A stretch of DNA of 64,000 nt from Anaerolineae bacterium. Its GTDB lineage: Bacteria > Chloroflexota > Anaerolineae > Epilineales > JAHCIE01. The stretch spans positions 475,666 to 539,665 of the forward strand of contig JAXLWL010000005.1 of assembly GCA_046328505.1 (NCBI GenBank), in the 5' to 3' direction. The translations under genes and the position numbers were made by a program. Positions 2,802 through 41,622 of this stretch are shown in pieces; within the stretch, counting starts at the first letter, position 1, and every line of letters starts with the position of its first letter. The notes beneath the pieces are model-generated. The model saw nothing but the letters and a program-made list of their open reading frames with translations, was not told where the DNA came from and did no database searches.

Positions 2802-3300
2802 TTACTCGATCCGAACGATGGCGGGGAGCCAGAGGTGTATCGGCGGCTCGTGGGTCTGCGTCACCCGCACCGGCGCCTTCATGCCCTCGACGTTCCCTGC
2901 CCGGTCGATCGCTCGGCTGTTCACCATCACGTCCCCAACCGGCGTCGGCAGCACAATCGCCCACAGCTCTTCCGTGGCGCCGGCTTGCGCCGCCTTTCCA
3001 TAGCGGCCCAGCAGCTCCGCCGCTGCCTGCCCTATCTCCGCCTGGTGCCACGCCTGGCCGCCATCGACGCTGACTTCGACGGCGGTGACGCCCCAGCCGT
3101 CGAGGGCGTAGCCCCACGCCAGCATCTCACCCGGCAGGACGTTCTGGTCGGGCAGGGGGAGTGTCGCGCCGGGCTGCGGCGAGACGATGCTGGACTGCGG
3201 CCTGACGTTGTCGACGGTGACCTTGATCGGCTCGCTGGGCTGCCCGATGTTGCCGGCGGCGTCGACCGCGCGCACGCGCACCTGATGCTCGACACCCTCC
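2802..3300 (-). repeat. 3'-terminal about 500-bp tract nearly identical to 15277..15775 (gene-conversion tract, copy A)
   Basis: Nucleotide alignment by eye gives about 95% identity over about 480 nt. Elsewhere the two genes are only about 80% identical at protein level in the C-terminal 1000 aa, and less upstream. The antisense ORFs 2818..3003 and 15206..15463 share an identical 57-aa stretch. Confidence 0.7.
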
Positions 3301-6300
3301 TCGTTGGGCAGGGTCCAGCTCTGACGCCAGGTGACGGTTCCGTCGGCGCTCGGCTGGCCGACGATCTCGGCCGCTCGCCAGGGGCTGTCATCGGCCTGGG
3401 TCTCGACGCGGCTGATGCTCCCGCCGGTCGGGAATGGGTCGCGGGCCGTGCCGTACAATTGCGCGACGACTTCCCGCCGGACCAGGTTCTCCGGCGCCGT
3501 GGCACTGGCGACCGGCGGCACATCGTCCACGGTGACCGTTCGCGTTGTCACGTCGCCGACCAGGTCGAAGGCATCGCTCGCGCGCGCCGCCACCATGACC
3601 GTCCCGGCGAGCGGGATGTCGACCTCGGCCTGCCACGCCGTCGTCCCCTCGGCCGTCTGCCAGGCTCCGTCGCCGAGGCGAACCTCGACCTTGCCGACGC
3701 CGCTCGGCCCCGCGCTTGCCGTTCCACGGATGACCTGGCGGCCGGATGGCAGGGTCGCGCCCTGGCCTGCCAGATCGATCTGCGCTTGAGCGCGCCGCCC
3801 GTCCACGGTGTGAGTCAGACGCGCCACGGTCAGGGTCGGCTCGCTGGCCAGCAATCCTGTCTGGAGGAACGCCGTCAGGGTCACCGCCGTTGTCGCCGCC
3901 AGATCGTTGTCGAGGCGGGCGGTGACGGTGATGGGCGCGAGCGCGCCGCTGGGGAGGGCGCCGAGCTCGATGTTCCAGACCTGACCGCTCGGCGGGGTCG
4001 GGTAGCCTTGCAGGCCCACCAGTTGCAGGCCGTCGGTGGTGGTCAGCACGAGGTGGGCGTTCTCGTGCACCTCCGGATCGCGGTTCGCGACGCGTACGAC
4101 ATACTGGATGGTTTGAGCCGGACCGGCGAGGGTCGTGGTGGGCGGCTCGCTGGTCACGGTCATCTCGACATGATGGCCGTGGGGCTGATTGGCATTGGGG
4201 ACGGCGCTGGGCGACAGCGCGGCCCAGTGGTAGGCGTCGCTCCACGCGCCCAGCAGCGAGTTGGACGTGGGGAATACACTCCGGACGTGCTCTTTATCGG
4301 ATGCGAGGCTGAAGGCGAGCAGCCGCACATCCGCCGCGCCGACACTCGTCTGCAGCGCGGACCATGGCAGACGCAGCTCGGTGTCGCCCTGACCATCGGT
4401 GGCCACTGCCACATCAGCTGCGTCGAGTGGCTGCCAGCTCGCGCCGTCGTAGCGCAGCACACGCGCTCCGTCCGTCTCCAGCACCACGAGCGTGTCTGCG
4501 TCGAACGGCAGCTGATAGCGCGTCGGCAACGGCGTCTCATCGGCGGGTTGCCAGAGGCTGCTCGTCCCGCCGCCTCCCGTGTCCAGGTAGATGTAGCCGC
4601 GGCCGAGGCTCGCCCAGTTGGCGCCGCGCCAGCCGAGGTACATCGCGCTCCCGTCAAAGCTGGCCCAGAGCTCCTGGGTCGGGGCGATCCGCGGGTCCCG
4701 GTCGAGCTGCTCGGTGGCGGTATCCCACTCCCCGCCGGCCACGTCCAGTTGGCCGTCCACCTGGATAGAGGACTGCCACTGCGGGCCGGGCGCGCTGGCA
4801 AGGCGAGCGCCGACGAACCAGGGGCCGAAGTGGCGGACGGTGAGGTTGCCGACGCCGTCCTGGGCGGCGAGGTGGATGTAGAAGGTGCCGGCCTGGGTGA
4901 ACTGAGCGGTGTAGCTCGGGCCGCTGAGCGGCGTGCCCGTGGTCGACGGCACGGTGTCGCTGATGGTGTCCACCGTCACAAAGGTCTTTACGACCCCGCT
5001 GGCGTCCCGCGGCGGCGCCCATTCCAATTGCACTTGAGCGGGCGCTGCGAGATGGCTCTCCTGAGCCGGCGTTGCGGTCACGGATTCGAACGGTGTCGGT
5101 CCCCACGTGTCGACCACGATCAACCGCGTCGCGGATGTTTCGTTGCCGGCTTGATCTCGTGCGCGCACGAGGACCGGATAGGTAACATAGTCATTATCGG
5201 CTGGCGCCGGGAGGAGTATCTCCCAACGGTTCTTGGTCAGGGTCGCGGGCGTCCACACGTAGCCGCCATTGAGACTGACATCGACCGCAACCAGGCCGCT
5301 GCCACTGTCATCCGCACTGCCGCTCAACGTGAACGGCTCGTTGACCACCGCCGCCTCCGCGGGCGCGGTGACCTGCAATGATGGCGGCGTCAGATCGAGA
5401 ACGACGTTGACGCCATCGGACCCAGACGGCTTCTGATCACCTGGCTCTGCCGCGATACGGTGCGTCCCCTCACCCGCAAGGGTCACTGTCCCCGACCAGC
5501 TGCTGAAGCTCGCCTGTGGGTCGGCCAGCTGAGCCGTCCCTGCTGCTGCGCCGTCTACGTAGAGCGCCACATGGTAGGGTGGAGTGCCCACAAAGCGGCC
5601 ATAGCCCTGGACAGGAACTACCGTCGTCATCACGGCGCTCTCATCGACGGGCAAGGACACCATCGCTGAATCATGCTTGGCCAGGGCCGTCACCGTTCGC
5701 GGAACGCTCCGCGTCTCGTTGCCGGCCCGGTCGCGGGCAACGGCCACGATCGTGTGCGCCCCGTCGCCGACAGGCGCCGGCGCCCGATAGACGATGCCGC
5801 CGCCGACCTGGTCCGCGGTGACGACGGTTCCGTCGATCTCGAGGTAGACCGTATCGAGGTTCGACTGGGTCTTGGAGCCAACCTTCACTGTGTCCTTGGC
5901 GTGTACGACCAATTCCAACACCGGGTCGCCGGTTGTAGCGCCATCCGAGGGCGACTTGAAATCGAGCTCGGGCGGCGTCGTGTCCACCACGAACGAGTCG
6001 CGATACCACGCGCTTCCGACCGTCGACCCGCTATTCGCCGCCCCCTTGGCAGCCGACGTATCCATGTCCGACCCGGCCGCGCCTTCCACCATGTTCCCCG
6101 CGCGATCCGTCGCTCGCGCGTAGACGCGGTACATGCCATCGCCCGAATTCGGCGTGACGGATGCTGTCCAGTAGGAGCCGGCCTGGCTCGCGGTCTTGAG
6201 TGTCGCCGGCAGCCACGCCGAGGGCACCGTCGCGGTGATAGGTAGCGTGGCGTCGGTCACGAAGCTCAGGCCGACCTCTACCTTGCCGATGCCGGAGACG

Positions 6301-9300
6301 GCCATGGCGCACGAGGTTCCGGCCGTACCCAGCAGGAGCGTCAGCGGCACCGCGACCACTTCGCGGTAGCCCATGTCCATCCGCGAGCCGCCGCCGACCG
6401 GCACATCCGCCAGCGGGTCGGCCGTGTCTACCGCGGGGGACTTGGATTGCAGGCGGTAGTCCGCGTGGCCTGCGTCCACAAACAGCGGGTCGCGGTTGAC
6501 GATGTCGTTGGCGCCCTGGACGAGCGTCGTGCCGGCGCCGACCTGGTAGTTGACGGTGTTCGCGTTGAGCAGATTGTAGTCGTTCAGAATCTGCCCCCCA
6601 GACGCCGTCGACAGCCCCGCCGTGTTGTTGGCCAGGATGTTGTCGCGCACCTCGACCCATGTGCCCGCGCCCGTACTGGACACGCCAGTGCCGGTATTGC
6701 TGACGATGGTGTTGTTGAGGACGAGCCCCGATGAGCTTGTCCCGAAGCTAATGCCGCCCGTGCTGCGCACGACGTTGCGCGTCACAGTGATGAAGCTAGA
6801 CGCGTTGACGACACTCACCCCCGGCTGAGAGCCTGCGCCGGTGAGCGTGAAGCCACTGACTTCGACTTGTGTCGCGCCGCTCACTATGACGGGGGTGGCG
6901 CTGCTGCCGTTGATTGTCGTCTGCTCCGCGCCACTCCCGATGAGACGCACGTGACTCGGGATGGTCAGCCGCTCGCTGTAGGCGCCCGGCCCCACGCCGA
7001 CCGTGACCACCGCGCCCGTTGCCTGGTCCGTCGGGAGCGTGCCGGAGGCGCTGACGGCTTTGACGAACTGCGAAGCGGCGTTCACGGCGTCCTGAATCCT
7101 GGTGAAGGCGTCCACCTGCCAGGTCAAGCCGTCGTTGACACACGTCTGGCAGTAGCCGTCGTCGGCGAAGAACGACGCCTGGACCTGCTGCACGTAGCCG
7201 ATATCCACGCGTGTGCCAGAGCCGGGCGGCACCGGGTCGGCGGGGTCGCCGGCGCCAATGACCGGTGAGTCGGACAGCGGCCGATAGTCGTTCACCGATG
7301 GGTTTGTGAAGAGCGGGTCGCCGAACACGGCGCCCGGTGTTGCTGCGTCGCGGGCGTTGCCGTCCACAACCAGGTCGGCGGCGTTTGCCCAGAACAGGTC
7401 ATACGTGATGGATGGCGCCGATCCGGCCGGACAGCCCTGTGTTACGTAGCGAATTCCCGTGTTCGTGTGGTAGGCGAAGATGGTGTTGCGCACGGCCACC
7501 GTGCTGCACGTTACGTCCAGCCCCGTGCCGCCGCCGATAATTGTGTTGTTGACCACCTCGGCCTGAGTTGCGCTGTCCGCCACGGTGATGGCGGTGACGG
7601 CGTTGCGGATGATGCTTCGATTGACCTGCACGCCCTTTCCGCCGCCGTTGATGAAGATTCCTGTCGCCGTCCCGCCCGCGTCCACCGTCAGCCGCGACAG
7701 ACTGGCGTTGCTGGCGCCTGAGATAGTGACCAGCTTCGTCACCGTGGAGGAGGGACTCTGGACGATGGTGGCGTCAGCGCCCGAGCCGATGACCTGGACG
7801 CCGGTCCGCAGTGTGAGCGCTTCACGATAGACGCCCGGCCCGACCATGATGCGCTGAGCGCCGGCGTTGATCGCCGCCTGGATGCCGGAGAAGGCCGTCG
7901 TGCCCCAGACGTAGCCGTCGTTCGCGCACGAGCTGCAGTAGCTTGGCGAAACGTGAACCGTCGCGGCAGCCGTCAGTGCCTTCGAAGCCAGGAGGCGAGC
8001 GGCTCCGCTGTCGCCTGACGTCGTGCCGACGGGCAGGGACGCCTCGCTGACGTGAGGAACGGGGCCGTAGCTCAGCTCGGTGCGCGCCAGACTACCGGCG
8101 GCGGCATCCTGGGGCACCACCAGCAGGTCCGACGATCGGTCGCAGTTCAGGTCGGCGCCGGCGGCGAAGGGGGTCGACGCGACGCTGGCAACTTTGGTGA
8201 GGGTAGCCGCGGGGCTGGGCGTCGTAGGCAAGTTCGTCGAGCCCATGAAGAGGTAGGCCGCTCCATCGCCCTTGACGATGACGAGGTCGTTCAGGCCATC
8301 GGGCGCTGCCGCGTTGGGTCCGGCGACATCGCCGGGTGCGGCGACGTACCCGGTAGCGCCCATGGTGTAGCCGGAGAAGATACGGTCGCCCGCGTACCCT
8401 TGCGGCCAATCATGCTTGGTGCGCCCAAAGACCAGATGCGCCAGGCCCGCGCTGACAAAGGCAAAGTCCGCGAGCTTGTCACCGTTCACGTCGCCGAGCG
8501 CCGCAAACGAGGCGCCGACCGGCGTCGGCCCTGTGAATGTGCCGGCGCGGTCGGTGAGGGGAGCGAGACTCTGCTGCGCGTGCGTGCTCGATGCCTTCTG
8601 GAAGCTCGGCGAGCCGAGGAAGAGGTACAACGCGGCGCTGCTGCCATGGAAGCTGTTGTTCGGGTCGGCGACGATGAAATCATCAAGACCGTCGCCGTTC
8701 GTGTCGCCGACCCCCATCGCCATGGCGCCATTCGGGTCCAGGGGCAAGACGGCTCCGGCGTCCTTCGTGACGTCCACGGTGCGGCTGCTGAAGTTCTTGC
8801 GACCGAGGACGAGATAGGCGTGGCCGGCCTGGCCCGCCGAGCCTGGCGCGCCGATCAGCATGTCGGCATAGCCGTCGCCGTTCACGTCGCCGGCCGACGC
8901 GACCCACGCGCCAATCGTCCGGCCGGTGGACGTGAGAATCACGCCGCGCGCCGACTGGTTCGAGTTCCGAAGCTGGGTCAGGTCCCAGTCGGCCCCCATC
9001 GGCCCGATTCGGCCGAAGACAACATAGACCACGTCGTTCGTCGGGTCCCCGACGAGAAGGTCGGCGAGGCCGTCGCCGTTGACGTCGCCGGCGGGAGCGA
9101 CGTGGGCGCCGAGCGCGGACGCGCCGGCGGCAACCAGGCTGCTATCCGAGGCGTTGAGAGCCTCGGTGGCCGGTGGCACAGGCCAGCCGCCCGCGCGCCC
9201 CTTGAGAATGAGGACCCGCCCCGTTCCGCCGTTGTAGGCGGGCATGCCGATGGCCGCATCCGCCCGGTTATCCCCGTCCACGTCTCCCAGCCACGTCACA

Positions 9301-12300
9301 GTCGCATTTCGTAGGTCGCCGATCTGCGCCGGCTCGAGAAGGACGGTCGCGCTGATGACACTATCTCGCGTGCCTTGCAGGGGCACGGGACGCGGCGCCA
9401 GCGGAACGTTGGCAAGATCGTCGGCGTGCCCCTGAATTGTGATTGCCTGGCCCGATTTCACGGTCGTCACATAGTTGGTGATGACATCGGCCGGCGCGAC
9501 CACATCTACGACGACGCTGATCGTCTGCGCATTGCCCACCTGACCCAGCGCGTCAATGGCGCGCACCGCGAGCGTGTGCGCGCCGCTGGCGTTCGCGTTC
9601 AGCTTCCAGGGGTAGCTCCAGGACGTCGACGACGGGTTACTTGCCTGGGTGTTCTGCCATACTGACTGCCAGGGCCGATTGTCGATGCTGAGTTGCACAA
9701 CGTCGACGCCGGCGACCTGCGAGATGCCGGAAAGGATGAGGTCCGTTGCCGTGCCGCTCAGCGTCACCGTCGCGCCACCCGTACTGTCAGGCGTCAGCCC
9801 CGTCAGGACCTGCCCGTCCTGCACGCTCGTAATCGCGGCGGCAGGCGCTTTCGTGTCGACGATCACCTGGGAGCTGGCGTCAGGCGAGACTCGCCCGACC
9901 GCGTCGGTCGACCGCGCGCGTAGCGTGTAGACGCCGTCGCTCGGTAGCGCGCTCCACGTCCAGGTCCAGTTGTCAGATCCGTTGGCGGTTTTCGATGTCG
10001 CCCAGTTGTCTGCCGACACTTGAACAGAATTGACCCAGCTTGTGCTGTCTTTCGCGGTGCCGCCGACGACGTACGCCGTGCCGTTGATGGCCTTGCCGCT
10101 CTCCGGGGCCGCAATCGTCGTCTGCGGGCTATCGACGTCGATCTTGACGGTCGCCGCCTGCGTGGCGGTCTTGGCGCTCCCGTCGGTCGGGTCCTTGTAC
10201 GGCAGGCTCACGTTGATGGTCGTCTCCAGAGACTGGGACGCGGAGAGTGCTCGCGCCGAGAACGTCACCCAGACCGTGTTGCCGGGGGTGAACGGACGCG
10301 GGCTGAAGTTCCAATTCATGCAGTTGTTGCCGTCCTGGGTCGAGCCCGTCGGGAACGGTGGAACGTAGGTCCCTCCGCTCGTCACAGCCGGGAATGAGAA
10401 GGCTGTGCTGCTTAGGCAGAGCTGCATGGTGCTAGTGATCGTGGTCGCCGTCGTGTTGGTGACGGTGAACGCGCCGGTCACCGAGGCGTCGGGCTTGACC
10501 AGGGTAATGCTCGACCCACCGTGCGAGACTTGAGGGCCGGTGCTCAAGTCCAGTCTCACCGCCGTGTTCGGCGCCCACGGACTGAGACCAATCGACTTCT
10601 CCTGGAGATCGGTCAGGCCGTCGTGGTCCGAATCTGGGTCGAGCGGGTTGGAGCAGACGTGGACGACGGAGCCGCTGGCGAACTTGACATCCCAGCCGCC
10701 GACGAGTTTCCCGGTCGAGTCGACGTGGCACACCTCGTCGCCGTCCTTGAGGCCGTCGCCGTCGGTGTCGGCCACGTTAATCGACGTGCCGAGGCGATAC
10801 TCCTCAGCGTCCGTCAGGCCGTCGCCGTCGGTGTCCTTCTTGGCCGGGTTAGTCCCCAGCGCCGCCGCGTTCTGCCACTCCCAGCCGTCCGACAGCCCAT
10901 CGCCGTCGGTGTCCCACGCGCTCGCGCTGGTGCCGATGGAGGCTTCCTGGCTGTCGGCGATGCCGTCGCCGTCTTTGTCGCGGTTCGTGACCTGGTTCCA
11001 CGACCAGAGGTTGTCGACGGTGTTGGGCAGGACGTCAAGGTAGATGGGGCTGGTTGCGTCGTTCCACGCATCCTTGTCGTCTGTTGTCGGCCCAGAGCCT
11101 TTGGCCGTGTCGGCGCTGCACGTCCGGGCAAGCGGAACTTTCCAGCACTTCTGGTAGCGCAGCGAGTAGTCGATAATGCTGGTGACATGGATGGCCGCGT
11201 TGCGCACGGCCTGCGCCGGCGTGAACGATGTCGTGATCGTGCTAGGGCAGTGCTTCACGCTGCCGCTCATCCAGCACGTGCCGTTCTGCGTCGTCGGCGT
11301 CGAGTCGCTCGATGCCCAACGGGTGAACGCCGAGCTTTGCTTGACGTCGTCGACCTTGCCACTGCGGCTGTGCGCCCAGTTCCAATGCGACTCGCCCGGG
11401 CCGACCACGATGGTCGTCGTCAGGTGCGTCTGGAAGGTGACCCGGTTGTTGACAACGGTGCCTAGATTGTCGTCCGCCAGCGTGAGGGTCAGGTCGCTGC
11501 TATCGACCGGGTGATTCTCATCCAACTCGGCGTAGAAGGCGACCTTGAGGATGTAATTCGCCAGCCAATCGACAATATGGCTGAAGGTATTGAGCGGGTT
11601 CCAGTCGCCCGTGATCAAGGCCACAAAGAGATACGTCAGCACCGCGACGATGATCTCCACCAGTATGCCAATTTCGGTGGAGGCGACGGCCACCAGCACA
11701 AGGGAGAGGACAAGCGTGAACACGATGACGATGGTCGAGGCAATCGCGCTGGCTAACTCCATGTCCGTTTGGAGATGGGATACGCTGTCGGAGTAGCCGT
11801 GGAAGCTGCTCCAGACCATGACCAGCGCGACGACGGCGACGATGATGGCCACGCCCACTGCGATCTTGCCCAGGCTCTTGGAACCTGAAGCCGCTGCCTC
11901 CGCGGCCCGAGTCACACCGGTCGCAGCGTCCGACAGGCGCAGCGCCTCTTTGATCGCGCCATAGGCGACGCGCACGCCCCACTTGATGCCCTGGCCGACG
12001 AGACGAATCACCGGCAGAACCTGTATGAAGACGGCGCCCGCTGCCGCAATGAACGTGGCTATCCCCTGGCTTGTTGGGGTCGCCTGGTTGAACTGCGAGG
12101 CGGCCCACTCGCGCCAGCCGGCGACTGCCCCGTCTAGGGCGATGGTGGTCGCCAGGTCGTTCAGGTGATATGCTGCCTGGACGTAGCCGGGCAGCTTCGG
12201 CTGGGATGGCTGCGAGAACCTGGCATAGAGTGCGGCGTCGTCGGCCTTGGGGCCGACCAGCGTCTGGCCGTTGACCGCCACGTAGTTGACCTGCCCGCCA

Positions 12301-15152: not shown

Positions 15153-15193
15153 GGAACGGCCTCCCCCCTCTTCAGCGCAACGCTTGATGCCAG

Positions 15194-15226
15194 CGGGGGC
15201 GCCGCGTGTGCAGCGCGACGCCCCCG
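15194..15226 (-). terminator. Interrupted 12-bp GC-rich hairpin in the 124-nt spacer between the tandem giant genes (terminator/attenuator candidate for copy 2)
   Basis: cgggggcg/cgcccccg outer stem with cgcg/cgcg inner stem and a 7-nt loop, read from the sequence. There is no U-tract. Confidence 0.3.
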
Positions 15227-15276
15227 TGCAGGTTGTCTATGGCGAATGGTGACGATCGCTTCGGACGATCTGTCCG

Positions 15277-15775
15277 CTACTGCTCAAAGATGATGAGGGG
15301 GAGCCAGAGGCGCATCGGCGGCTCGTGGGTCTGCGTCACCCGCACTGGCGCCTTCATGCCCTCGACGTTCCCTGCCCGGTCGATCGCCCGGCTGTTCACC
15401 ATCACGTCCCCCACCGGCGTCGGCAGCACGATTGCCCATAGCTGGGCCGCGGTTCCGGCTTGAGCAGCCTTCCCGTAGTGGCCCAGCAGCTCTGCCGCCG
15501 CCTGCCCTATCTCCGCCCGGTGCCACGCCTGGCCGCCATCGACGCTGACTTCGACAGCGGTGACGCCCCAGCCGTCGAGGGCGTAGCCCCACGCCAGCAT
15601 CTCACCCGGCAGGACGTTCTGGTCGGGCAGGGGGAGTGTCGCGCCGGGCTGCGGCGAGACGATGCTGGACTGCGGCCTGACGTTGTCGACGGTGACCTTG
15701 ATCGGCTCGCTGGGCTGGCCGACATTGCCGGCGGCGTCGACGGCGCGCACGCGCACGTCGTGGGACACGCCTTCT
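15277..15775 (-). repeat. 3'-terminal about 500-bp tract nearly identical to 2802..3300 (copy B)
   Basis: See the 2802..3300 repeat feature. Confidence 0.7.
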
Positions 15776-24700: not shown

Positions 24701-27700
24701 CAGCGCTTGTATTTCTGGGCGTCGACCAGGCTGTCGCTATCGCAGAAGCCCTGGGGATTGGACCCGTTGCCTGACGTCACCGCCGAGTTCTTGACGCTAA
24801 AGTTGCTGGTCCAGGCCGGCGGGTTGCCGTTGAAGGAGTCGGGGTCCTGGAACATCTCGGCAAAGGCCCAGCTCTGCTTCACATCGTCCAGGTTGCCCTG
24901 GCGCATGTGCCAGTAGTCCTTCTTGATGTCGATGTTCGTATTCGCGGTCAGTGTCGTGACCATCGTCATCGTAATCTCGTAGGTCGTGAGATTGTCGGCG
25001 ATGGACCCGAACGCCGTCTGATTGGCCGGGTTCGCGTGAACCGTCAGGCTCGGCTGGGACGGTATAGCCCCGACGTCAGGGTCGTTGACCAGCATGTCTA
25101 TCTTGAGAATGGCCTCGCTCAGCCACTCTATCAAGTGCTGGAAGGTATGCATCGGGTTCCAGTCGCCGCTTATGGCGGCGACCACTATATACGTGATTAT
25201 TAAGATGATTAGCTCGATCAAGAAGCCAACACCCGTGCTGGCGGTCAGCGCGATGATGGTGTCGACGACGAACATGAACACGGTGAGGACGGTGCTGGCG
25301 ATGGTCTGCGCCAACAGCGTATCCTGCTGGATGCTGTTGATGTCGCCGCCGTTGTTCTTGTGCCAGACGAGCCACGTCGCCACGACGGCAATCGCCGTGA
25401 CGATCCCGCCGATCACAACCATCTTGATCTTGGCGCGCTTGGCGCCACTGGCGACCGCTCGAGGATGGTCGAACAGATCGTGGGTTGGATTCGGAGACAG
25501 TTTGAGCTCGCGCCGCACGATAAACTGCAACTCCGCATTCCGCGAGCGGAATGAGAAGGCATAGAACGGAGCGACAAGCGCCGCCATAATTCTATAGCTC
25601 AGCCTGGTATCCATGCGGACCATGCGGGTTGCCCAGAAATTCGCGTACCTCATCATAGTGACCGCGTACTTCACGTAGCGGACCATGGGCACGACGAGGA
25701 GCTTCACAAAAGCCTGGATGTTCAGCGTTCGGCTCAGCCGTGTGGCCCAGCTATCCAGCGCCTGCGACGTGCCCTTGTTCTTGATGTCGAGGACCAGGGC
25801 ATCCAACTGGTAGGCCGTGCGCATGTATGCGGGCAGATTGTGCGTCCCCACGGCGAAGAACTGGTTCAGGTCGGACGGATTGGCGGTTTGGCCGACGTCA
25901 GGCGTCGGCTGGCCGTCGATGCTCATGACCCGGCTGCGGCCCTCGTAGTAGGAGCCGAAGAGCATCATCATCATCGTCCCGTAGTCGGCCTGCGTCTCGT
26001 TCGGGTACCGCCGCTGTATCTCGGCCTGTCCCTCTTGGGATGTGAGCGCCTGCCAGGTCGGATTACTCGTCGTCGGGTCGACGCGGCAGCCGTACTGGGT
26101 GAGCTGGACGCTGCGCACGACGTTCAGCGAGGACTGGGCTAACTGGAAGTTGAAAACGATAGGATTGCCGTTCTGCATGTTCGGCTCGCCGTTCGTGACA
26201 GTGACCAGGCCTGTCTGGGTCGGGTCGAGGCCGCTGTTTGTCTCCTCGTAGGCCGTCACGAGCGTCGGCGTCATCGCGTTTGTCGCGCCTGCCTTGCACT
26301 CGATGTAGTGCTGGTTCAGGAACTGCACGGTCGTCGTCATCGAGGTCGTCGACAACGCCTGGTCCGTGTGAGAGTAGTAGCCCAGGTTGGTGATCGTGAC
26401 CTTGGGGTCCACGTACCACGTATCGGTGATGGTCTGCCCTTGCGCGGGGTGCGCGAACTTGTCGACGATCTGGGGCAGCGTCGGGTTGAGATCGCCCAGG
26501 AAGGTCGGCGCCAGCCCAGACAGCAGGTTGAACATCACCTTGCCTTCATCGTCGACATTCGGGTTCGTGGTCGTCTCCGGCGCCGTTGTGCCGAAGAGCG
26601 CCACCTGGACGTTCTTGCTCTCCGACAGCTCCAGGCCTGTGACGCGGAACAATGGCTCATAGTACGCCGAGATGACCGACGGCTGGGTGTCGATCTCACA
26701 GTTACTGGCGTCCGCCGGCTTGCTGGAGTCCTTGCAGTTGGTATAGCTGTCGATCTGCGCCTGTGTCAGCCATAGCAGCCGTCCCTCACTTAACTTGAGC
26801 GACGTGCCGACTTCCTTGGCGGTGAACGCGATGTGGCCGGAGAAGGCGGAGACCTGGCCGCCGGTGCCTACCGTCTGGAGCGGTACCGTGAGCTGGTAAT
26901 AGGTCTTGTCGTCGCTCTGGGTGCTGGCGATGCTGTATTCCTCGGCCAGCGAGGGATTGACCGGGCTGTTGATTTGCAGCACGGGCAAGAGCTCTACGTC
27001 CTGGGTAGAGTGGTTCAGGTCCTGAATCTGGCCGGCGCTGTCGTCAGGCCAATCGAGCCACGTCGTGCTGTAGCGCAGATGATTCATGGCCTGCGGCTGG
27101 AGCTGGACGTCGACGTAGACCACGGTGTCGGGGTGGCTGCCGGCGATGTCGATTTCCATCTTGGGCCGGTAGGCCAGGTTGTTGTTATCAGTCGGCGAGA
27201 GGTCGTCCGCGTTGAGCACGCCGTCGTTGTCGATGTCGTCGTCCCAGGCGTCGGGGATGCCGTCGCCGTCGATGTCACTGCAGGTGAACTTCCCCGTCGT
27301 GCTGTCAACATAACAGACCGACCCGTCATCGATACCGTCGAGATTGGTGTCCGCGGCCAGGGGGTCGAGGAGCCAGGTCTTGCCGTGGCTGTCGGTATAG
27401 CCCTTGACCTCGAGGGTGTCGGTGATGGTGTCGTCGTCTGAATCGACATTCTTGAAGTCGGTACCCAGGCACCACTCTTCGCTGTTCTTCAAGCCGTCGT
27501 TGTCGTCGTCGCCGTTGGGGTCTACGCCTTCGCTTGAATAGAGTGTGCGGCAGTCATTCAAGCCTGTGCCCGACGAGCCGAGGGGAGTCGTCTGGGGGAC
27601 GGCGTTCTTCGGGCTTTCAGGCAGCGTCTGTGCCAGGCGAGCCAGGAGGTTTTGCGCCGCCGCCTCATCACTCGGCGCTCCGGTCAGTGTCGAGATGGCC

Positions 27701-27861
27701 TTGTCCAGCGGTGGCGAGGCGCTCTGGCTGGCGACGCGGTTGTTGAACCGCACCGTCAATGCCGCGCTCGCCAGCGGCGCGCCCACCATGGACAGGATCG
27801 TCGCGACCGCAATCGCGGTGTACAGGGGGCGGCTGCTGCGGCTGCGTACTAGCAGAGCCAC
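15277..27861 (-). CDS. Giant polytopic cell-envelope protein, copy 2, main part (4194 aa ORF starting at an internal GTG). The true gene most likely continues upstream to 28796 across a frameshift.
   Basis: Same domain order as copy 1 (TSP3-like DTDKDGDGIS / DTDNDGLSDGFE, TM cluster ...ISGDWNPMHTF at about nt 25150-25640, FG-GAP, beta-helix, conserved C-terminus). The reading frame stays open upstream of the called GTG for about 165 nt and encodes RAAAGRAQLAKRAPLALYALAVIALATFVALLV. This is homologous to the first TM helix of the copy-1 hairpin. Confidence 0.9.
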   Translation of the reverse strand: MALLVRSRSSRPLYTAIAVATILSMVGAPLASAALTVRFNNRVASQSASPPLDKAISTLTGAPSDEAAAQNLLARLAQTLPESPKNAVPQTTPLGSSGTGLNDCRTLYSSEGVDPNGDDDNDGLKNSEEWCLGTDFKNVDSDDDTITDTLEVKGYTDSHGKTWLLDPLAADTNLDGIDDGSVCYVDSTTGKFTCSDIDGDGIPDAWDDDIDNDGVLNADDLSPTDNNNLAYRPKMEIDIAGSHPDTVVYVDVQLQPQAMNHLRYSTTWLDWPDDSAGQIQDLNHSTQDVELLPVLQINSPVNPSLAEEYSIASTQSDDKTYYQLTVPLQTVGTGGQVSAFSGHIAFTAKEVGTSLKLSEGRLLWLTQAQIDSYTNCKDSSKPADASNCEIDTQPSVISAYYEPLFRVTGLELSESKNVQVALFGTTAPETTTNPNVDDEGKVMFNLLSGLAPTFLGDLNPTLPQIVDKFAHPAQGQTITDTWYVDPKVTITNLGYYSHTDQALSTTSMTTTVQFLNQHYIECKAGATNAMTPTLVTAYEETNSGLDPTQTGLVTVTNGEPNMQNGNPIVFNFQLAQSSLNVVRSVQLTQYGCRVDPTTSNPTWQALTSQEGQAEIQRRYPNETQADYGTMMMMLFGSYYEGRSRVMSIDGQPTPDVGQTANPSDLNQFFAVGTHNLPAYMRTAYQLDALVLDIKNKGTSQALDSWATRLSRTLNIQAFVKLLVVPMVRYVKYAVTMMRYANFWATRMVRMDTRLSYRIMAALVAPFYAFSFRSRNAELQFIVRRELKLSPNPTHDLFDHPRAVASGAKRAKIKMVVIGGIVTAIAVVATWLVWHKNNGGDINSIQQDTLLAQTIASTVLTVFMFVVDTIIALTASTGVGFLIELIILIITYIVVAAISGDWNPMHTFQHLIEWLSEAILKIDMLVNDPDVGAIPSQPSLTVHANPANQTAFGSIADNLTTYEITMTMVTTLTANTNIDIKKDYWHMRQGNLDDVKQSWAFAEMFQDPDSFNGNPPAWTSNFSVKNSAVTSGNGSNPQGFCDSDSLVDAQKYKRCYNTTSMTFNMTQSGPNLTFPFLSQLEANLRYQKCWYAGVGFTCSADINYSKGPDKTQDPENYQDARSSVTMDAVPATLDALWTWDVKNLIDNSTYPAWNTDKDGDGISTATEQSLGTDSTKWDTDNDGLSDGFEYDNRDKVALDPKKADTDGDGLSDRLELIYGTDPTNADTDNDGLSDGEEVCRFDATQGKIIGGWDVKLASGLVSHVCSDPTKGDYDGDGLLDSQEKAAGTSPYAPNTAPSFVLNVTPTTTHNGSAYTLLKPGDSLQTVLNLNNTTTAAVNQPMTLSYDTAALSGLAVSQQTGSSGYTPPTPTATSGGFSWNLTQKPLAATEAMTSTIGGKVQANVGMSARTVLQASVPYSDTTVKAMKTVSSTQTVLIDADAPSSLVTAPTPSQAVHGTAFTLGGTATDPTSWPSKVEVHITGASYDSHWQQADGTDIWDYTWTPLPADGVYTIASRATDAVNHVETPAAGVSMIVDNTPPSASFGSLADGQALKNITYSTVTITGTASDLVSHAPQVAGLATVQLSIDNQPWRNVKTYTSDHPATGDWSFAWKLADQKYGSHTLAVRAIDAGGLVGAAQQITVIVDTLPPTDMWSNAASEVQAGKTVTFEGHADDTGNVPLPARPVALEGGVSSTPLNPIDQATVWLMPNGPTEDITKTVTWLGDVDGDGRADMAVGTPGSAINGAANAGRVSILYGQPGGWPLSPDGIALKDSPSTFTGKPGAELGAYVASAGDVNGDGLSDILIGDPLNNQVYLIFSRVGPMGALDPTSLINSSNKSKGKIFTVNNGYVGKWFAPAGDVNGDGYGDILIGATNRSDGKGLVYLVLGGNPSNGPLSVKQKFTLDDQQALSRPIVAASILMDKNGAVATGLGDVNNDQYADFAIGDPNKALSGANSASVYVFFGGPSYVGVGNPTVVNPVQGANGRFTGDAGMPVGSQVVALGDVNGDQLPDFAYSSGNAPRIAYGRTSGWSMNMTANVSFTGYPVAPNGFIAGVGDVNSDGKSDIMLGTVSGRAYLVRGAADLATNHPIQAQFSDVGAAASAPYAAAADVNCDKSSDLLLVPFGTQMTASAKETAEYKRAVRRELDLGPSTAPRPLNELPVFMQNGDGLAAPSAFASVIDAEALSSKAMAEPGQVMTAAQTRYVDDDYCASCANDGHAWGTTAFSTIQAALDAATGGTSASAPGDTIIVGPGTYDKAVFHAGKNFITLHGVDPDAVFIDAGGGTGIQVLPASEYSPTAGGLKGVVIENLTIRNAVTSIEVNYGGTAGSTDLADQNNIRVRNVLFYQDKASSKAVAVNTSGVELRHNTLVANSSGIVLIQNTGAITNALYLRDNLFVALPNAAPLPQWLQNNNSISLSLLNTNNGFAGQTGTNADWNSAKPPTGTSMTQMALTQAAFRDQPKQVFRLLSTSLARGKAADQTDLGYYTYHAPVYVNPTYCEKCSNNGHTWGVDAFNDIQAGINSGAQRVLIEPGLFRQRIYLVNGVDLFGTGAALTVIAPPNATSSFLIGAEGVKDAGVALLTITGEDHDDGLHVDAGGFISVTRSVIRNTPYAVKVTGSGTGATSAEALLVNNTLTNNTNGVAAASCGNVDVRNTIFAYHTGTALSYYQNCATTYLHTYNDFWRNGHDLSINGNNVDQPGPGEVFADPRFIDPDAQDFRPQDGSPVVRAGDPRDPTPPGTGGRVDIGYAQSSSAAVYVSPDYCAQCINDGLQWQVNAFNTIKDGISHVPPIAGEWTVGVAPGYYTERVAPKSGVRLVGSGAEQTIIDADGTGAPVTLNGVTHVEVTGFGLQNSDASNAGIVVSGASNTITVTHNIMQLNAGGGAIFRNASSGVFGFNTVANNTGDGLTLADSHTWVNARFNIFAYNGGKGANNNSVGLFQDGYNLFYQNSGGNTSGTVTLDPTDIANQDPQFFDPNPWDPADYTLQATSPAVNAVPATDWQPVPLGGGDRADLGYKELLATPVTLMFGKQGTTCGAGNAGVSSVEVGVSYVPDASVSPENTLPTTWTAATLTTRGQAGSYWTLPINLATGGGIYQSDGLYRLYTRPTDMAGNTLDVTDSRVYRASFIADKTAPTVSIITPTNGLATSAAAVAMETDVSDYVATGAGTQYNVARVYFEVDGTQIAARQLTAGAATGNQRYRAVTALRDGSHSITAKAVDKAGNVGQSATSQITVSTTRNEADLTTPAPSSAVISTTLPLQGYVHFKDTSGNGQVKVKVDNSTTPVIATLDDSTAQATRWTANVTLSAEGAHTLAIGASRTTGASTPYTTTFSLTKDSTAPAVTVQAPSSTVINSVTFQGTASDGGSGLNAVEVSVDGGYTWSPATVNGTAWTYAWAAPSQTDYATFPLRVRGIDKAGNIGTQSATFVVDNLGPTPFRLTTASPIEGSHLTAPASVTLAWQPLDDGSGTVRTFASADTISNTVPSTTGTPLSGTSYTAQLSQAGNFYIHLAAQDAAGNLTVRHFGPWFVGARLASAPGPQWQSSIQVDGRLDVAGGEWDPATEQLDRDPRISPAHEMWASFDGSAMYLGSRGANWPSVGRGYIYLDTVAGGTRSPWVPEGETPLPPSYQLPFDADTLVVLDTAGSRVLRFDGSSWQPLQAPEVSIALGATGDSEIRLPWSTLQTSVGAGDVRALAFSLGRDETLPRTVFPTSNSLLGAWSDAYHWAGISPSTVPNADQPHGHHVEMTVSSQPPTSAPVGPGQSIQYVVRVTNRDLEPRPNAHLVLATTDGLQLVGLQGYPTPPGGQRWNIDLGSLASGALAPITVTARLGNDLAATTAVTMTALLETGLLASEPTLTAARVAHTVDAQRAQVQIDLAAQGATLPAGRQIIRGTATAGPSGVGKVEVRLGDGAWQTAQGANAWQAEVDIPLTGTLVVAARASDAAGLVGDATTRTITVDNVPPIASVSPPDSSIVYGVAGSLRGTARDLFPSGGSISRVETQVDGNPWRMAEIVGQPAADGTVTWQQTWTIPKEEGVSHDVRVRAVDAAGNVGQPSEPIKVTVDNVRPQSSIVSPQPGATLPLPDQNVLPGEMLAWGYALDGWGVTAVEVSVDGGQAWHRAEIGQAAAELLGHYGKAAQAGTAAQLWAIVLPTPVGDVMVNSRAIDRAGNVEGMKAPVRVTQTHEPPMRLWLPLIIFEQ

Positions 27862-28796
27862 AAAAGTGGCCAGCGCGATGACGGCGAGCGCATAGAGCGC
27901 CAGGGGGGCACGCTTGGCAAGCTGCGCGCGGCCAGCGGCGGCGCGGGGGCGGTGGACGGAGCGGACGGCAGGGCCAGCGCGCCGTTGGCGCCGGCGACCG
28001 GCGCCAGGATCGGCGGGACATGCTCGTCATAGCGCGAGAAATCCACTACCAGGTGGACCTGGGCGTCCTCGGTCGCGCTGGTCTGGGGTAGGGACAGGTC
28101 GAGGATCTCGCGGCGTGGGCGGCCATCGCTATCTACCCACAGCTCGCCCCGGCCGCTCATTCGGTCATAGAGCGGCGAGCGGGTCAGTTTGACCCCGTCA
28201 GGGATCTGGCCTGCCAGAAGCGTCTCCATGCGCTCGAGCTGATAGTCGGCGTAGCGCGGCCCATCGACCCGGAAGGTGTAGCGTGCCATGCTCCCCGCCG
28301 AGGTCTTGACCGAGTCGGCCTGGGCTACATCGGCCACCGCGGCCAGGTAGCCCAGGTAGTCGCCCTGGGGAGCCGTCGCGCCCAGCGGATCATCCACCTT
28401 CTGCCACTTGCCGCCGTAGCCGACGTAGGCGCTTCCGCCTACGAGCAGCAGCTGCACAGCCGCGCTTTTCTTGTCTGTGCCCAGGGTCAATCGGGCGTCG
28501 GCAGGCACATCTGCGGCGCCTCCCTCCGGCCGGGCTACGTCGCCGTCCACGCGCAGCATCGTCTTCTCATCCGTCCGCCCGGCGTTGGCCGGCACGGCGC
28601 GCGGAATGATGGTTTGCTGGGCGTCTGCCGTCACATGGTAGCTGGCAGCGGCGCGCGCTTGACGCAGGGCATCCGTGATGGCGTCGCCAGGAGTGGCGGA
28701 CGCGGCGCGGGTCAGAGTGTAGCCGGCCGCGAGGACGACCAGCAGTGTGGGCAAAAGGGCACAAATCAATAGCCTTAAGCGTTTCTGAGCGGACAT
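27849..28796 (-). CDS. N-terminal fragment of giant protein copy 2 (signal anchor plus conserved about 250-aa N-module), separated from 15277..27861 by a frameshift
   Basis: 315-aa ORF. MSAQKRLRLLICALLPTLLVVLAAG is a signal anchor. It is homologous along its length to residues 1-300 of copy 1 (QQT[IL]IPRAVP, GELW[VI]D[GS]DG[LR]PRR conserved). The last about 30 aa are out-of-frame nonsense. It overlaps the giant ORF by 13 nt in a different frame. Confidence 0.65.
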   Translation of the reverse strand: MSAQKRLRLLICALLPTLLVVLAAGYTLTRAASATPGDAITDALRQARAAASYHVTADAQQTIIPRAVPANAGRTDEKTMLRVDGDVARPEGGAADVPADARLTLGTDKKSAAVQLLLVGGSAYVGYGGKWQKVDDPLGATAPQGDYLGYLAAVADVAQADSVKTSAGSMARYTFRVDGPRYADYQLERMETLLAGQIPDGVKLTRSPLYDRMSGRGELWVDSDGRPRREILDLSLPQTSATEDAQVHLVVDFSRYDEHVPPILAPVAGANGALALPSAPSTAPAPPLAARSLPSVPPWRSMRSPSSRWPLLWLC

Positions 28797-28998
28797 GGTA
28801 GAACCTTCCTGGATGGGCAGCGCAGGCGGGGTCGAGCGCGTGGGGTGATCGACGCGGAGGAATTCGTTGGCAGCTTTCGGACGTGAGCGAACCAGATCAT
28901 GCAGTTTGGTCTTGTATCGTGCACACAGTTAGGCCGAGCTTCGGATATGGCAGGCAGCGTGCAGGGCATTTGGACAGAAAATGAAGCTCCCCAAACGC

Positions 28999-29007
28999 AA
29001 TATAGCA
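28999..29007 (-). promoter_or_regulatory. Extended -10 element TGc-TATATT about 195 nt upstream of giant gene copy 2 start (promoter candidate)
   Basis: Minus-strand read is ...TTCGTTTGCTATATTGCG... Other promoters in this window use the TGn-TAnnnT form. Confidence 0.25.
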
Positions 29008-29046
29008 AACGAACGTAGCGAAATCGCATCCGGCGGTGGACAGGCA

Positions 29047-29292
29047 TTACGGCGGCCGGACGGCACGACCGCCGGGTGGATCAATGGGCGGCAGAATGTC
29101 GAGTGGCTCGAGGAAGAAGGAACCCTCGGTCTCCGCTCGCAGAAAAGCCAGCAGCGCGTCCAGGCTGGCAAACATCCGGCGCTCGCCTGTATGCGGGCTT
29201 TCCAATGACACTCGCCAGGCAGGCCCATTCTCACTCCCTACCTGCCACAGGCGTAGCATATAGGCCAGGTAACGCGGGGGCTCGGTGATCAT
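29047..29292 (-). CDS. Small hypothetical protein (81 aa) with an N-terminal YxxRLW..WR.SLE..TGER..F.SL..L..FL pattern
   Basis: ORF MITEPPRYLAYMLRLWQVGSENGPAWRVSLESPHTGERRMFASLDALLAFLRAETEG. The 5' end overlaps the upstream leader of the SARP regulator on the opposite strand. No strong RBS was seen. Confidence 0.3.
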   Translation of the reverse strand: MITEPPRYLAYMLRLWQVGSENGPAWRVSLESPHTGERRMFASLDALLAFLRAETEGSFFLEPLDILPPIDPPGGRAVRPP

Positions 29293-29401
29293 CGCTCTCC
29301 TTCCGCGACGCAGTCGCTGGTCTCAGCATATCAGAGGTGCGTATCGAGATCGCAGCGGGAACGTAGCGCCCGGCTGGTTCGGTGGTCTTTTGTCGAGCGC
29401 C

Positions 29402-29429
29402 TGTGAACGGGCTGACCTATGCTATAATG
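29402..29429 (+). promoter_or_regulatory. Sigma-70-like promoter candidate: TGTGAA, 16-bp spacer, TATAAT, upstream of the SARP regulator
   Basis: A perfect TATAAT is at 29424..29429 with a weak -35 (TGTGAA). An ATG at 29462 follows, with a G-rich RBS (GGGGGGA). Confidence 0.35.
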
Positions 29430-29461
29430 GAAGAAGGCAGCTGTTGATCGGGGGGAAACCA

Positions 29462-38351: not shown

Positions 38352-39608
<1,257 letters not shown>

Positions 39609-39737
39609 ATTCTGATCACACTCTCGATTTCAATGAGGTGCCTGTTCATAATGTCTCCTATGCCGCTCCTCACCCGGGCTCCCTCTCCCTCGCCGAGACT
39701 CTCGGTGAAGGAGAGGGAAGGCCTGTTCGGGCGCCGC

Positions 39738-41546: not shown

Positions 41547-41622
41547 ATTACTCTCCCATGCTTCGGTAAATCGGTCGCCAGTTCTGTCAGGATAGAGAAG
41601 GAGTATTCCGTGCTCTGGCACC

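Follow-up and report, generated by a model that had tools for sequence, protein, structure and literature searches.

Genes A and B and their reading frames

The window, a 64,000-nucleotide stretch of contig JAXLWL010000005.1 (GenBank assembly GCA_046328505.1) of an Anaerolineae bacterium, contains two paralogous genes for very large predicted envelope proteins, designated here A and B, which lie in tandem on the minus strand between positions 2802 and 28796. The two proteins share an N-terminal base of approximately 1380 amino acids (aa) that is predicted to be threaded through a membrane several times, which we call the chassis, followed by a long ectodomain of repeat modules (Table 1). A first-pass annotation of this region had described 2 open reading frames (ORFs) covering about 26 kb. 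Its coordinates match the ORFs exactly and gene A is intact, but the ORF list contains 3 long minus-strand ORFs rather than 2, gene B being divided between 2 ORFs in different frames. The protein encoded by gene A is 74% identical over its full length to a 4119-aa ortholog (P0003). In gene B, the 315-aa ORF is homologous to approximately the first 290 aa of A (48-57% identity to the N-terminal module, or N-module, of A), and overlaps the main ORF by 13 nt. The first start codon of this main ORF falls in the middle of a hydrophobic helix, and reading its frame slightly further upstream yields the missing first half of a transmembrane (TM) hairpin. When one G is inserted into the G6 run (27903-27908), gene B becomes a single uninterrupted ORF of 4506 aa that spans 15277-28796, and in a DNA alignment of gene B with its intact 4510-aa ortholog (P0002) the single-base gap falls exactly in this run. 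The repaired protein is 84% identical to P0002 over its full length. As sequenced, gene B is thus frameshifted, and the pair of proteins of 4100-4500 aa that had been annotated is the right biological reading. Because the ORFs of gene B are otherwise open and retain this identity to the ortholog, any lesion is recent, or else an assembly or homopolymer error.

The paralogy of the 2 genes was confirmed, as A and repaired B align end to end, with 30-58% identity over approximately the first 3350 aa and 70-93% over approximately the last 770 aa. The highly conserved C-terminal block therefore measures about 770 aa and not the approximately 1000 aa claimed before. Gene B contains in addition an insert of approximately 350 aa beside its beta-helix regions. 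Comparison with the orthologs showed that identity is distributed differently in the 2 parts of the protein: in the chassis (N-terminal 1400 aa), A and B are 38% identical, versus 78-85% between orthologs, while in the C-terminal 770 or so codons (2805-5117 in A and 15280-17590 in B) the A-B identity of 78.8% at the amino acid level exceeds that between A and its ortholog (70.8%) and between B and its ortholog (76.5%). The DNA of this C-terminal block is 83.8% identical between A and B over 2163 nt. Because A-B identity in this block is higher than ortholog identity, unlike in the chassis, the pattern of sequence identities indicates that the C-terminal ends of A and B have been homogenised by gene conversion or by late module exchange between the tandem copies. 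The duplication is an old one, as tandem pairs of A-like and B-like genes occur in 2 further genomes. In the window the 2 genes are separated by 124 nt only, and a promoter and terminator scan of this gap gave no signal. In the closest relative of the window genome, a 607-aa DUF333/Tricorn/PD40 beta-propeller gene lies between the B and A orthologs (L005, 23668-25491). The G+C content of the chassis-coding parts (10001-14000 and 24001-28000) is 0.61-0.64, compared with 0.66-0.70 in the ectodomain-coding parts, which probably reflects amino acid composition and not foreign origin.

Table 1. Positions, in window coordinates, of the features of genes A and B and of the adjacent regulator.
Feature	Position	Strand	Evidence and remarks
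Gene A, predicted 4116-aa giant envelope protein, intact	2802..15152	-	ATG start, stop codon 2802-2804; ORF list and translation
A TM1, signal anchor (aa 8-27), preceded by MDTRTRR	15072..15131	-	Kyte-Doolittle 2.95; Hessa-type -2.3; AlphaFold2 helix 3-25; no lipobox Cys
A N-module (aa 36-270), LprG/LppX/LolA-like half-barrel, predicted outside the membrane	14343..15047	-	
A TM2-loop-TM3 hairpin (aa 336-390) around WYRRRRGVY	13983..14147	-	Kyte-Doolittle 1.99 and 2.54; AlphaFold2 helices 324-357 and 362-396
A first TSP3-type calcium-binding repeat block (aa 450-552)	13497..13805	-	Pfam TSP3_bac; D-x-D-x-D-G repeats kept family-wide
A 470-aa conserved alpha/beta domain, no recognisable relative (aa 553-1022)	12087..13496	-	
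A mid-protein TM cluster (aa 1030-1185): marginal TM4, basic loop, TM5, TM6, TM7, ending in GDWN(P)	11598..12065	-	
A post-TM beta domain with conserved cysteines (aa 1186-1383)	11004..11597	-	AlphaFold2 pLDDT approximately 85-95; no Pfam match
A second TSP3 block (aa 1384-1500)	10653..11003	-	Pfam TSP3_bac, E 2.5e-20, 4 stretches
A Ig-like domains, then FG-GAP beta-propeller region (aa 1501-2440)	7833..10652	-	Pfam Big_13, Big_7, FG-GAP, FG-GAP_3; still present in family consensus
A two right-handed beta-helix regions (aa 2441-2940)	6333..7832	-	Pfam Beta_helix, NosD, Disaggr_assoc
A C-terminal Ig-like/PKD/DUF11/Mo-co_dimer-like domains	2835..6332	-	Pfam; approximately last 770 aa 70-93% identical to B
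A C-terminal tail LWLPAIVRIE, variant resembling the YLP box	2805..2834	-	Sequence
Gene B main ORF, 4194 codons	15277..27861	-	GTG start inside TM2; ORF list
Gene B N-module ORF, 315 aa, different reading frame	27849..28796	-	ORF list
G6 run (C6 on the coding strand), one base short compared with the intact gene	27903..27908		Repair test and ortholog DNA alignment
B TM2-RSRSSR-TM3 hairpin, in the frame of the main ORF	27751..27915	-	Hessa-type TM2 -3.3
B TM5-TM7 cluster ending in GDWN(P), no convincing TM4 before it	25156..25437	-	
B C-terminal tail LWLPLIIFEQ, YLP-box-like	15280..15309	-	Sequence
SARP-like STAND regulator (BTAD, AAA_16 and TPR), divergent, upstream of B	29285..32998	+	Pfam; likely true start Met at 29462

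The membrane chassis and its protein family

The membrane segments were analysed using Kyte-Doolittle hydropathy in 19-residue windows, a Hessa-type insertion scale and AlphaFold2 models made with family alignments (confidence given as the predicted local distance difference test, pLDDT). Protein A contains 7 hydrophobic segments, at approximately aa 8-27, 338-358, 366-386, 1030-1050, 1095-1117, 1135-1157, and 1160-1185 (Kyte-Doolittle 1.99-2.95), which form an N-terminal anchor (TM1), a hairpin (TM2 and TM3), and a mid-protein cluster (TM4 to TM7). On the Hessa-type scale TM1, TM3, TM5, TM6, and TM7 of A and TM1, TM2, TM5, and TM7 of B are at or below 0 kcal/mol and their partner helices at +1.2 to +2.3; the most hydrophobic window of the 2700-aa ectodomain of A scores +2.45, with a median of +17. 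For the cluster of A we obtained Kyte-Doolittle values of 2.25, 2.83, and 2.79 and Hessa-type sums of +1.9, -2.3, -2.9, and -1.5, and AlphaFold2 placed helices with good confidence at 1094-1121, 1126-1157, and 1162-1181, the pLDDT of TM4 and the basic loop (1023-1095) being lower than 50. In the corresponding TM4 region of B, which is very basic, the best window reached a Kyte-Doolittle value of 1.26 and a Hessa-type value of +7.8, and no credible helix was found. The first-pass annotation had assigned about 7 TM segments to both proteins. This number holds for A, in which TM4 is marginal, but not for B, which has 6 convincing segments and lacks TM4. Likewise, of the 4 helices that had been proposed for the cluster, 3 are strong, while the fourth is marginal in A and undetectable in B, and crude peak-picking in the relatives described below also gave 3 as the commonest number of helices in the cluster.

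For the signal anchor and the hairpin around a basic loop, as originally annotated, hydropathy, AlphaFold2, and conservation agree, and the AlphaFold2 confidence in these helices is good as well. Across the family the hairpin loop is kept as R-x-x-R-x-x-Y and the Pro that ends TM3 is nearly invariant (R359 in 29/39 sequences, R362 in 33/39, Y365 in 29/39, and P380 in 37/39). Conserved positions of the TM cluster are W1114, F/Y1117, T1140, and G1162. Of 57 sequences, 44 have an intramembrane Asp or Glu in TM7; in A and B there is instead a Glu 7 residues earlier in the same helix (E1166 in A). The GDWNP sequence at the end of the cluster, which had been called conserved, is absent from the homologs L001 and L002, and its Pro is kept in just 9 of 57 aligned sequences. 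We considered whether GDWNP might be an NPTH-type autoproteolysis motif and rejected this, as only a minority of aligned relatives share it with A and B. K+R counts in A peak in the segments assigned to the cytoplasm, namely the N-terminus, the RRRRG loop, and the TM4-TM5 loop (6 K+R versus 3 D+E), and fall to zero in the TM5-TM6 loop and the stretch after TM7, in keeping with the predicted orientation. Altogether, these results show that the multi-pass anchoring in the middle of the protein is real and conserved. From these segments we infer an overall topology in which the chassis emerges from the membrane 3 times. Because TSP3 repeats are present on both sides of the cluster and conserved cysteines follow it, both of its flanks look extracytoplasmic, independently of hydropathy, and the cluster must then span the membrane an even number of times. 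Unless the topology departs from this simple model, one crossing would be made by a weakly hydrophobic, basic helix, perhaps in partnership with the buried acid.

Three domains occupy the predicted outside segments of the chassis. The N-module folds in the AlphaFold2 model as an open antiparallel half-barrel closed by a helix, as in the LolA and LppX_LprAFG superfamily, with just 6-16% sequence identity to the LprG/LprF/LppX and LolA/LolB carriers. No Pfam model matched it, and its NCBIfam match to an SCO4651-family lipoprotein (28.6 bits) was below the cutoff of 65. The N-terminus of A (MDTRTRRLVVVALLFVPVALVLAMGLSLRR) contains no Cys and hence no lipobox acylation site, a TM anchor standing in its place. 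As modelled, the N-module belongs by structure to the LolA/LprG superfamily, but it is no lipoprotein. Annotated before as a conserved outside module of about 250 aa, it is homologous in A and B, present in 64 of 68 relatives, and identifiable by its LprG/LppX/LolA-like fold. The second outside region had been described as about 900 aa of TSP3 repeats plus a domain of about 750 aa; in A it measures approximately 640 aa, namely approximately 100 aa of TSP3 repeats, the 470-aa domain, and a linker. The 470-aa domain is confidently predicted, and neither a sequence relative nor a fold relative was found. In the post-TM domain, C1302, C1336, and C1345 are kept in 47-48 of 55-56 sequences. Within the 1380-aa chassis, A 1-450 and A 553-1383 are covered by no Pfam or NCBIfam model above cutoff, and a chassis profile had zero matches to Protein Data Bank sequences at E<=1.

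A word-indexed search with the core region returned one partial Anaerolineae homolog only, and 4 matches when used with a profile. We thus searched exhaustively with HMMER, using a core profile built from A 553-1388, B, and this partial homolog. This identified a family of 767 clusters at 50% identity (E<=1e-3), of which 543 remain at E<=1e-10 and 168 at E<=1e-30. Among the best 149 matches, 68 sequences exceed 3000 aa (the longest has 7871 aa), the matched core region begins approximately 450-660 aa from the N-terminus, and the core sits at approximately 500-1250 aa. These 68 long relatives, which we used to count the layout, contain the N-module in 64 cases and the post-TM domain in 64, an N-terminal anchor in 58, exactly 2 hydrophobic segments in the hairpin zone in 58, 2-6 segments in the cluster zone in 65, none within the core domain in 64, and 0-1 across the approximately 3000-aa distal ectodomain in 58. 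A fits this TM layout fully, and B fits it except for TM4. Both also have the combination that defines the family, the 470-aa core domain plus the post-TM beta domain, located approximately 500-1400 aa from the N-terminus. Homologs with the same layout were found in 4 GTDB species representatives (2 Anaerolineae, one Anaerolineales, and one Caldilineaceae), and all 13 named homologs are from Anaerolineae, Anaerolineales, Caldilineaceae, or Chloroflexota. They are annotated as 'hypothetical protein', with generic repeat names, or in one case as 'bactofilin', evidently by mistake. At least 3 members are present in one metagenome-assembled genome (MAG), and at least 3 also in the closest relative of the window genome, each copy taking up approximately 12-24 kb of coding sequence. 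Full-text literature searches on giant Chloroflexota proteins and on TSP3 or FG-GAP proteins in Anaerolineae found no description of the family. By sequence comparison, A and B belong to a large family that has so far been found only in Chloroflexota and that is unnamed and not modelled in Pfam or NCBIfam. The locus had been proposed as the best candidate for a novel system in the window, with an arrangement not recognised as any described adhesin, S-layer, or toxin family. It is indeed undescribed and its chassis has no model in either database, but it represents a widespread family and no one-off. The layout recurs in 58-65 of the 68 relatives.

The break in gene B falls at the linker that joins the N-module to the rest of the protein, and the same linker is broken in the third copy of the closest relative (locus L012, Anaerolineae MAG GCA_046328525.1). 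There, a DDE transposase gene lies between a separate 276-aa ORF that is 49% identical to the N-module of A and the rest of the protein (L012, 3964-5832 and 6001-15600). The remainder opens with MRRRRALY and TM3, exactly at the cytoplasmic loop, and the downstream ORF of gene B likewise opens with a basic stretch plus TM3. This linker may tolerate lesions because TM3 can take over as signal anchor; alternatively, both copies may be in decay. The N-module seems in any case not to require fusion to the rest of the protein. Gene B could be a true pseudogene, or a phase-variable gene that is switched off or split into 2 products by slippage in the G6 run, and not the result of a sequencing error. 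That the missing base, judged against an intact ortholog, sits exactly in a homopolymer run would fit this, as would the independent uncoupling of the relative at the same linker by an insertion sequence (IS) and the signal-anchor-like start (RSRSSR plus TM3) of the downstream ORF, which can be compared with a natural short form of the family (P0004). However, neither ORF has acquired further stops, the identity to the ortholog is kept over 4500 aa, and a run of 6 bases is short for efficient phase variation. We consider a true pseudogene or phase-variable gene somewhat less likely than not.

Predicted exported modules, C-terminal tails, and genomic context

The exported part makes up approximately 90% of the protein and consists of calcium-binding repeats, Ig-like spacers, an integrin-type propeller (approximately aa 1950-2420 in A), and beta-helices of the pectate-lyase/NosD type. 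Giant bacterial surface proteins are ordinarily built from such modules, and Pfam places the TSP3-like, Ig-like, FG-GAP, and 2 beta-helix regions where they had been annotated, with the insert of approximately 350 aa added in B. The relatives retain the chassis, the second TSP3 block, the Ig domains, and the FG-GAP region; their distal modules differ and include laminin-G domains, Kelch or other propellers, PKD domains, and CLIPPER arrays. Exchanging distal modules while holding the chassis constant is the behaviour of adhesin families.

The C-terminal tails of A and B resemble the YLP box described by the 11-position NCBIfam model NF050076 (sort_motif_YLP). A tail of the form [YWFL][LMF]P-hydrophobic is present in 21 of the 68 long relatives, compared with 0.15 expected from internal windows, and in 8 other long relatives the C-terminus is a TM helix followed by a basic tail. 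The best-scoring relative (P0137) reached 12.5 bits with NF050076, below the cutoff of 15. We found no publication on the YLP-box motif, and an NCBIfam scan of the A tail gave no LPXTG-anchor match. At locus L012, a stand-alone copy of the C-terminal module (717 aa) with a YLP tail is located just upstream of the split family gene. In the window, a 514-aa protein with a Big_7 Ig-like domain (62-1606, plus strand) ends in ...RLYLPLLERDESLSGR / ...PQRLYLPLLERDESLSGR, a tail of the YLP type like those of both giants. Apart from the giants, no further open reading segment of 100 aa or more in the window ends in this way, and the tail is the sole part that the 514-aa protein shares with the 717-aa ORF of L012.

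The SARP-like regulator had been placed immediately downstream of the giant genes; it is instead located upstream of the pair and transcribed divergently. Pfam detected its BTAD (4.9e-23), AAA_16 (4.5e-24), and TPR_12 (2.4e-10) domains, and did not detect Trans_reg_C (the OmpR-type winged helix) at E<=1e-3. Its N-terminus reads MSRLALSLLGPFQ, in which we take MSRLALSLLGPFQAVLEGQPV to resemble the N-termini of SARPs. A gene with BTAD, AAA/NB-ARC, and TPR domains adjoins a family member in 6 of 9 loci (the window, L005, L006, L007, where there are 2 copies, L011, and L012), which include distant members, and is absent from L008-L010. Judging from this recurrence the link between regulator and family gene looks real, and we infer from it a regulatory effect on the giant genes. 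In the divergent intergenic region (28797-29470) no SARP-type direct repeats were found, and one 11-nt inverted repeat is of doubtful meaning. Downstream of A lies an NAD-dependent epimerase gene, and across the 9 loci no transporter, sortase-like, or secretion gene recurs beside family genes.

Several other genes of the window were recorded. A 435-aa Peptidase_A4 protein (33087-34394, minus strand; E 7e-37) is encoded just past the regulator; this peptidase family is mostly fungal and unusual in bacteria. A MacB/FtsX-type permease, an HlyD-like adaptor, and a histidine kinase/response regulator pair (38352-44506, minus strand) form one block approximately 10 kb from the giant genes, and elsewhere they do not recur beside members of the family. 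A second SARP-like gene (49279-52485, minus strand) encodes 1068 aa, with Trans_reg_C and BTAD at the C-terminal end (aa 845-1063) after approximately 840 aa without a Pfam match, and is followed by 3 consecutive ORFs on the same strand without a Pfam match (48445-49254, 47331-48416, and 46085-47005). Finally, a homolog of the Lit-type lipoprotein intramolecular transacylase (54058-54723, plus strand) is located approximately 1.2 kb upstream of a PMT_2-type membrane glycosyltransferase gene (55957-57951, plus strand), with a phosphoglycerate mutase gene in between. Envelope proteins would be the substrates of these 2 enzymes, which may bear on the modification of surface proteins in this organism.

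Possible functions and relation to known systems

Our preferred interpretation, in which we have about even confidence, is that A and B form a calcium-stiffened surface fibre or adhesin of filamentous Chloroflexota that is rooted in the cytoplasmic membrane. The chassis would be sewn through this membrane as follows: the TM1 anchor is followed on the outside by the half-barrel, which would bind a hydrophobic ligand in the manner of LprG or LolA; then come the TM2/TM3 hairpin with its basic cytoplasmic loop and, again outside, the TSP3 repeats and the 470-aa domain; and lastly 3 strong helices and one weak helix with the buried conserved acid lead to the outside beta domain that contains cysteines. 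As each of the large exported regions comes after an inside-to-outside helix (TM1, TM3, and TM7), a region-by-region launch through Sec during synthesis is possible. By standard Sec/YidC insertion logic, export would then be co-translational and occur in 3 instalments, with the protein remaining rooted in the cytoplasmic membrane. From there a stalk of approximately 2700-6500 aa, composed of TSP3 repeats, Ig-like domains, and the FG-GAP propeller, would reach outward to heads that vary by lineage (beta-helices here, laminin-G, Kelch, or PKD domains elsewhere). At the far end, the protein may be processed or attached through its YLP-box-like tail or, in some relatives, held by a C-terminal TM anchor. 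Such a fibre might bind polysaccharide or the surfaces of neighbouring cells, for example in filament cohesion or in attachment to a sheath or matrix, and the adjacent SARP-like STAND activator would switch the giant genes on.

Several observations weigh against this fibre. The adhesin role was deduced solely from the domain content. B and many relatives have 3 clear helices in the cluster, so that the number of crossings is odd unless a weakly hydrophobic fourth helix exists, and an odd number would leave the C-terminal 2900 aa in the cytoplasm. The NF050076 hidden Markov model did not report the tails of A or B, which carry a W-L-P variant, and the frameshift in gene B means that at least one copy may be non-functional. 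Moreover, a passive anchor needs neither 7 helices nor an intramembrane Asp or Glu, a lipid-carrier-like domain, or a strictly conserved domain of 470 aa. The buried acid and these 2 domains together suggest that the chassis probably does more than anchor.

The main rival takes up this last point and proposes that the chassis is a machine for handling envelope lipids, glycolipids, or wall polymers, with adhesion being secondary. At the outer leaflet the LprG/LolA-like domain would collect a hydrophobic ligand, the TM bundle with its conserved buried acid would couple the process to the proton gradient or to a partner transporter, and the 470-aa domain and the long stalk would deliver the ligand outward or tether it. 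The acid in TM7 of most sequences, together with the earlier Glu of A and B, fits this scheme, and the 470-aa domain is kept more strictly than an anchoring role demands. However, the protein contains no ATPase, MFS, or RND-like domain and has no conserved transporter neighbour in the 9 loci; its N-module has been uncoupled twice (by the frameshift in gene B and by the IS insertion at L012) and some members begin at TM3; and approximately 70% of the protein consists of adhesin-type modules, all of which makes the scheme improbable to us. A related proposal, that the TM bundle with its buried acid, the LprG-like domain, and the 470-aa domain, whose fold is apparently new, act together as a new kind of energy- or ion-coupled envelope machine specific to Chloroflexota, which moves or inserts a lipid or polymer or senses the load on the fibre with a response through the SARP-like STAND protein, seems a long shot; if it were true, the family would be a core component of the Chloroflexota cell envelope. 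The same uncoupling of the N-module, which occurs twice as a separate ORF, can also be read as a sign of a processed polyprotein, in which the internal TM segments are successive signal and stop-transfer elements and the chain is cut after export. The products would be a membrane protein of the LprG type, an ectodomain from the middle of the chain, and a C-terminal fibre, released or attached to the wall, that is sorted via the YLP box, so that no polytopic giant would persist as the mature form. AXA-like sites after TM3 (ASA|AL in B and AQA|SQ in P0004), natural members that begin at the RRRR loop and TM3, a putative sorting motif that implies C-terminal processing, and the stand-alone C-terminal module with a YLP box at L012 are all consistent with such cutting. 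Yet no protease domain or conserved cleavage motif was found, the limited distribution of GDWNP included, both split cases look like lesions, and the order and spacing of the chassis modules are kept within a single polypeptide in most of the 68 relatives, so that linkage appears to matter; we consider processing of this kind unlikely.

A contact-dependent or pore-forming effector, in which the mid-protein helices are held in reserve and inserted into a target membrane as in the delivery domain of large clostridial toxins, is very improbable. A cluster of hydrophobic helices amid a very large multidomain protein and the very long beta-hairpins that AlphaFold2 predicts in the flanking domains recall such proteins, and Foldseek returned weak, non-significant matches to alpha-hemolysin, leukocidin, and gasdermin pores (E 0.04-0.1, probability <=0.1), which is the level of chance. 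On the other hand, neither a toxin, glucosyltransferase, peptidase, or Rhs/pretoxin domain nor an immunity-like gene was found, the C-terminus consists of conserved Ig-like domains and has no polymorphic toxin tip, and the N-terminal signal anchor with its positive-inside hairpin is typical of a resident membrane protein. Two specific forms of this idea were examined separately. A polymorphic toxin of the contact-dependent inhibition type was rejected owing to the conserved Ig-like C-terminus and the lack of a toxin/immunity pair, and for a delivery protein like the large clostridial toxins there were no Pfam matches to the glucosyltransferase, cysteine protease, or TcdA/TcdB pore and no fold match.

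Little is understood about how the Chloroflexota envelope is built, be it the number of membranes (one or two), the material that covers the wall, or the way in which filaments cohere. The family would provide a concrete component of this envelope, with hundreds of clusters, a distribution seemingly restricted to Chloroflexota, several copies per genome, and a membrane base that is both conserved and unusual. It may also exemplify how a very large ectodomain can be exported in 3 instalments, each by its own internal signal anchor, and it would tie the curated but unexplained YLP-box motif and the SARP-like STAND regulators to a specific class of cargo. In addition, a chassis profile could replace the labels 'hypothetical protein' and 'FG-GAP-like repeat-containing protein' with a more specific annotation.

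Parts of this architecture have counterparts in known systems. Compared with LprG/LprF/LppX of Mycobacterium and with LolA/LolB, the N-module is tethered by a TM helix on each side and has no lipobox-acylated Cys, and it is fused to a protein of 3800 aa; its ligand binding is putative. The regulator resembles the SARP/AfsR-type STAND proteins of Actinobacteria in its order of BTAD, AAA/NB-ARC ATPase, and TPR domains, in the sequence LSLLGPFQ at its N-terminus, and in adjoining its presumed targets, but Pfam finds no OmpR-type winged helix in it and the presumed target is a giant envelope gene, not a secondary-metabolite cluster. A, B, the 514-aa neighbour, and 21 of 68 relatives resemble the YLP-box proteins of NF050076 in a short C-terminal tail of the form [YWF]-L-P-hydrophobic-hydrophobic-x-basic; A and B differ in their W-L-P variant, and even the best relative stays below the cutoff. 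Integrin alpha chains and thrombospondins contain the FG-GAP propeller and the TSP type-3 repeats, respectively, which are combined here in one extracellular protein, but the repeats are of the bacterial version (TSP3_bac), there is no integrin beta partner and no single-pass C-terminal anchor, and common descent of the architecture is unsupported.

The only published giant bacterial proteins with many TM segments that we found in the literature searched are those of Omnitrophota ('Archaeovorins'), which measure 10,000 to more than 30,000 aa, contain SecA-DEAD and peptidase domains, and have been linked to predation (bioRxiv 10.1101/2023.11.21.568195). Like A and B, they are very large predicted proteins of uncultured bacteria with several TM regions between mostly extracellular modules and with domains recognised by structure prediction only. 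However, the Chloroflexota proteins mostly measure 3000-7900 aa, have no SecA domain, and possess a chassis of their own, and the content of the 2 groups is unrelated.

The closest functional likeness would be to the giant adhesins, both those of the RTX group exported by type I secretion systems (T1SS), such as LapA, MpIBP, and SiiE, and the Ebh-type giants of Firmicutes, with which A and B share a size of several thousand residues, Ig-like arrays, calcium repeats that stiffen the stalk, and distal ligand-binding modules that vary among relatives. A and B themselves are not T1SS adhesins, since there is no HemolysinCabind match and the flanking genes are the epimerase and the SARP-like regulator, nor do their tails, LWLPAIVRIE and LWLPLIIFEQ, contain the LPXTG motif of sortase-anchored proteins. 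They lack RTX nonapeptide repeats, a T1SS signal, and adjacent T1SS genes, and in place of an outer membrane retention plug, a sortase, or a single C-terminal helix they are anchored by approximately 7 TM segments in the N-terminal third, with 3 exported regions interleaved. Their sequences thus suggest that the A/B family consists of giant surface proteins that are built on a new, conserved polytopic base and that would function much like the giant repetitive adhesins.

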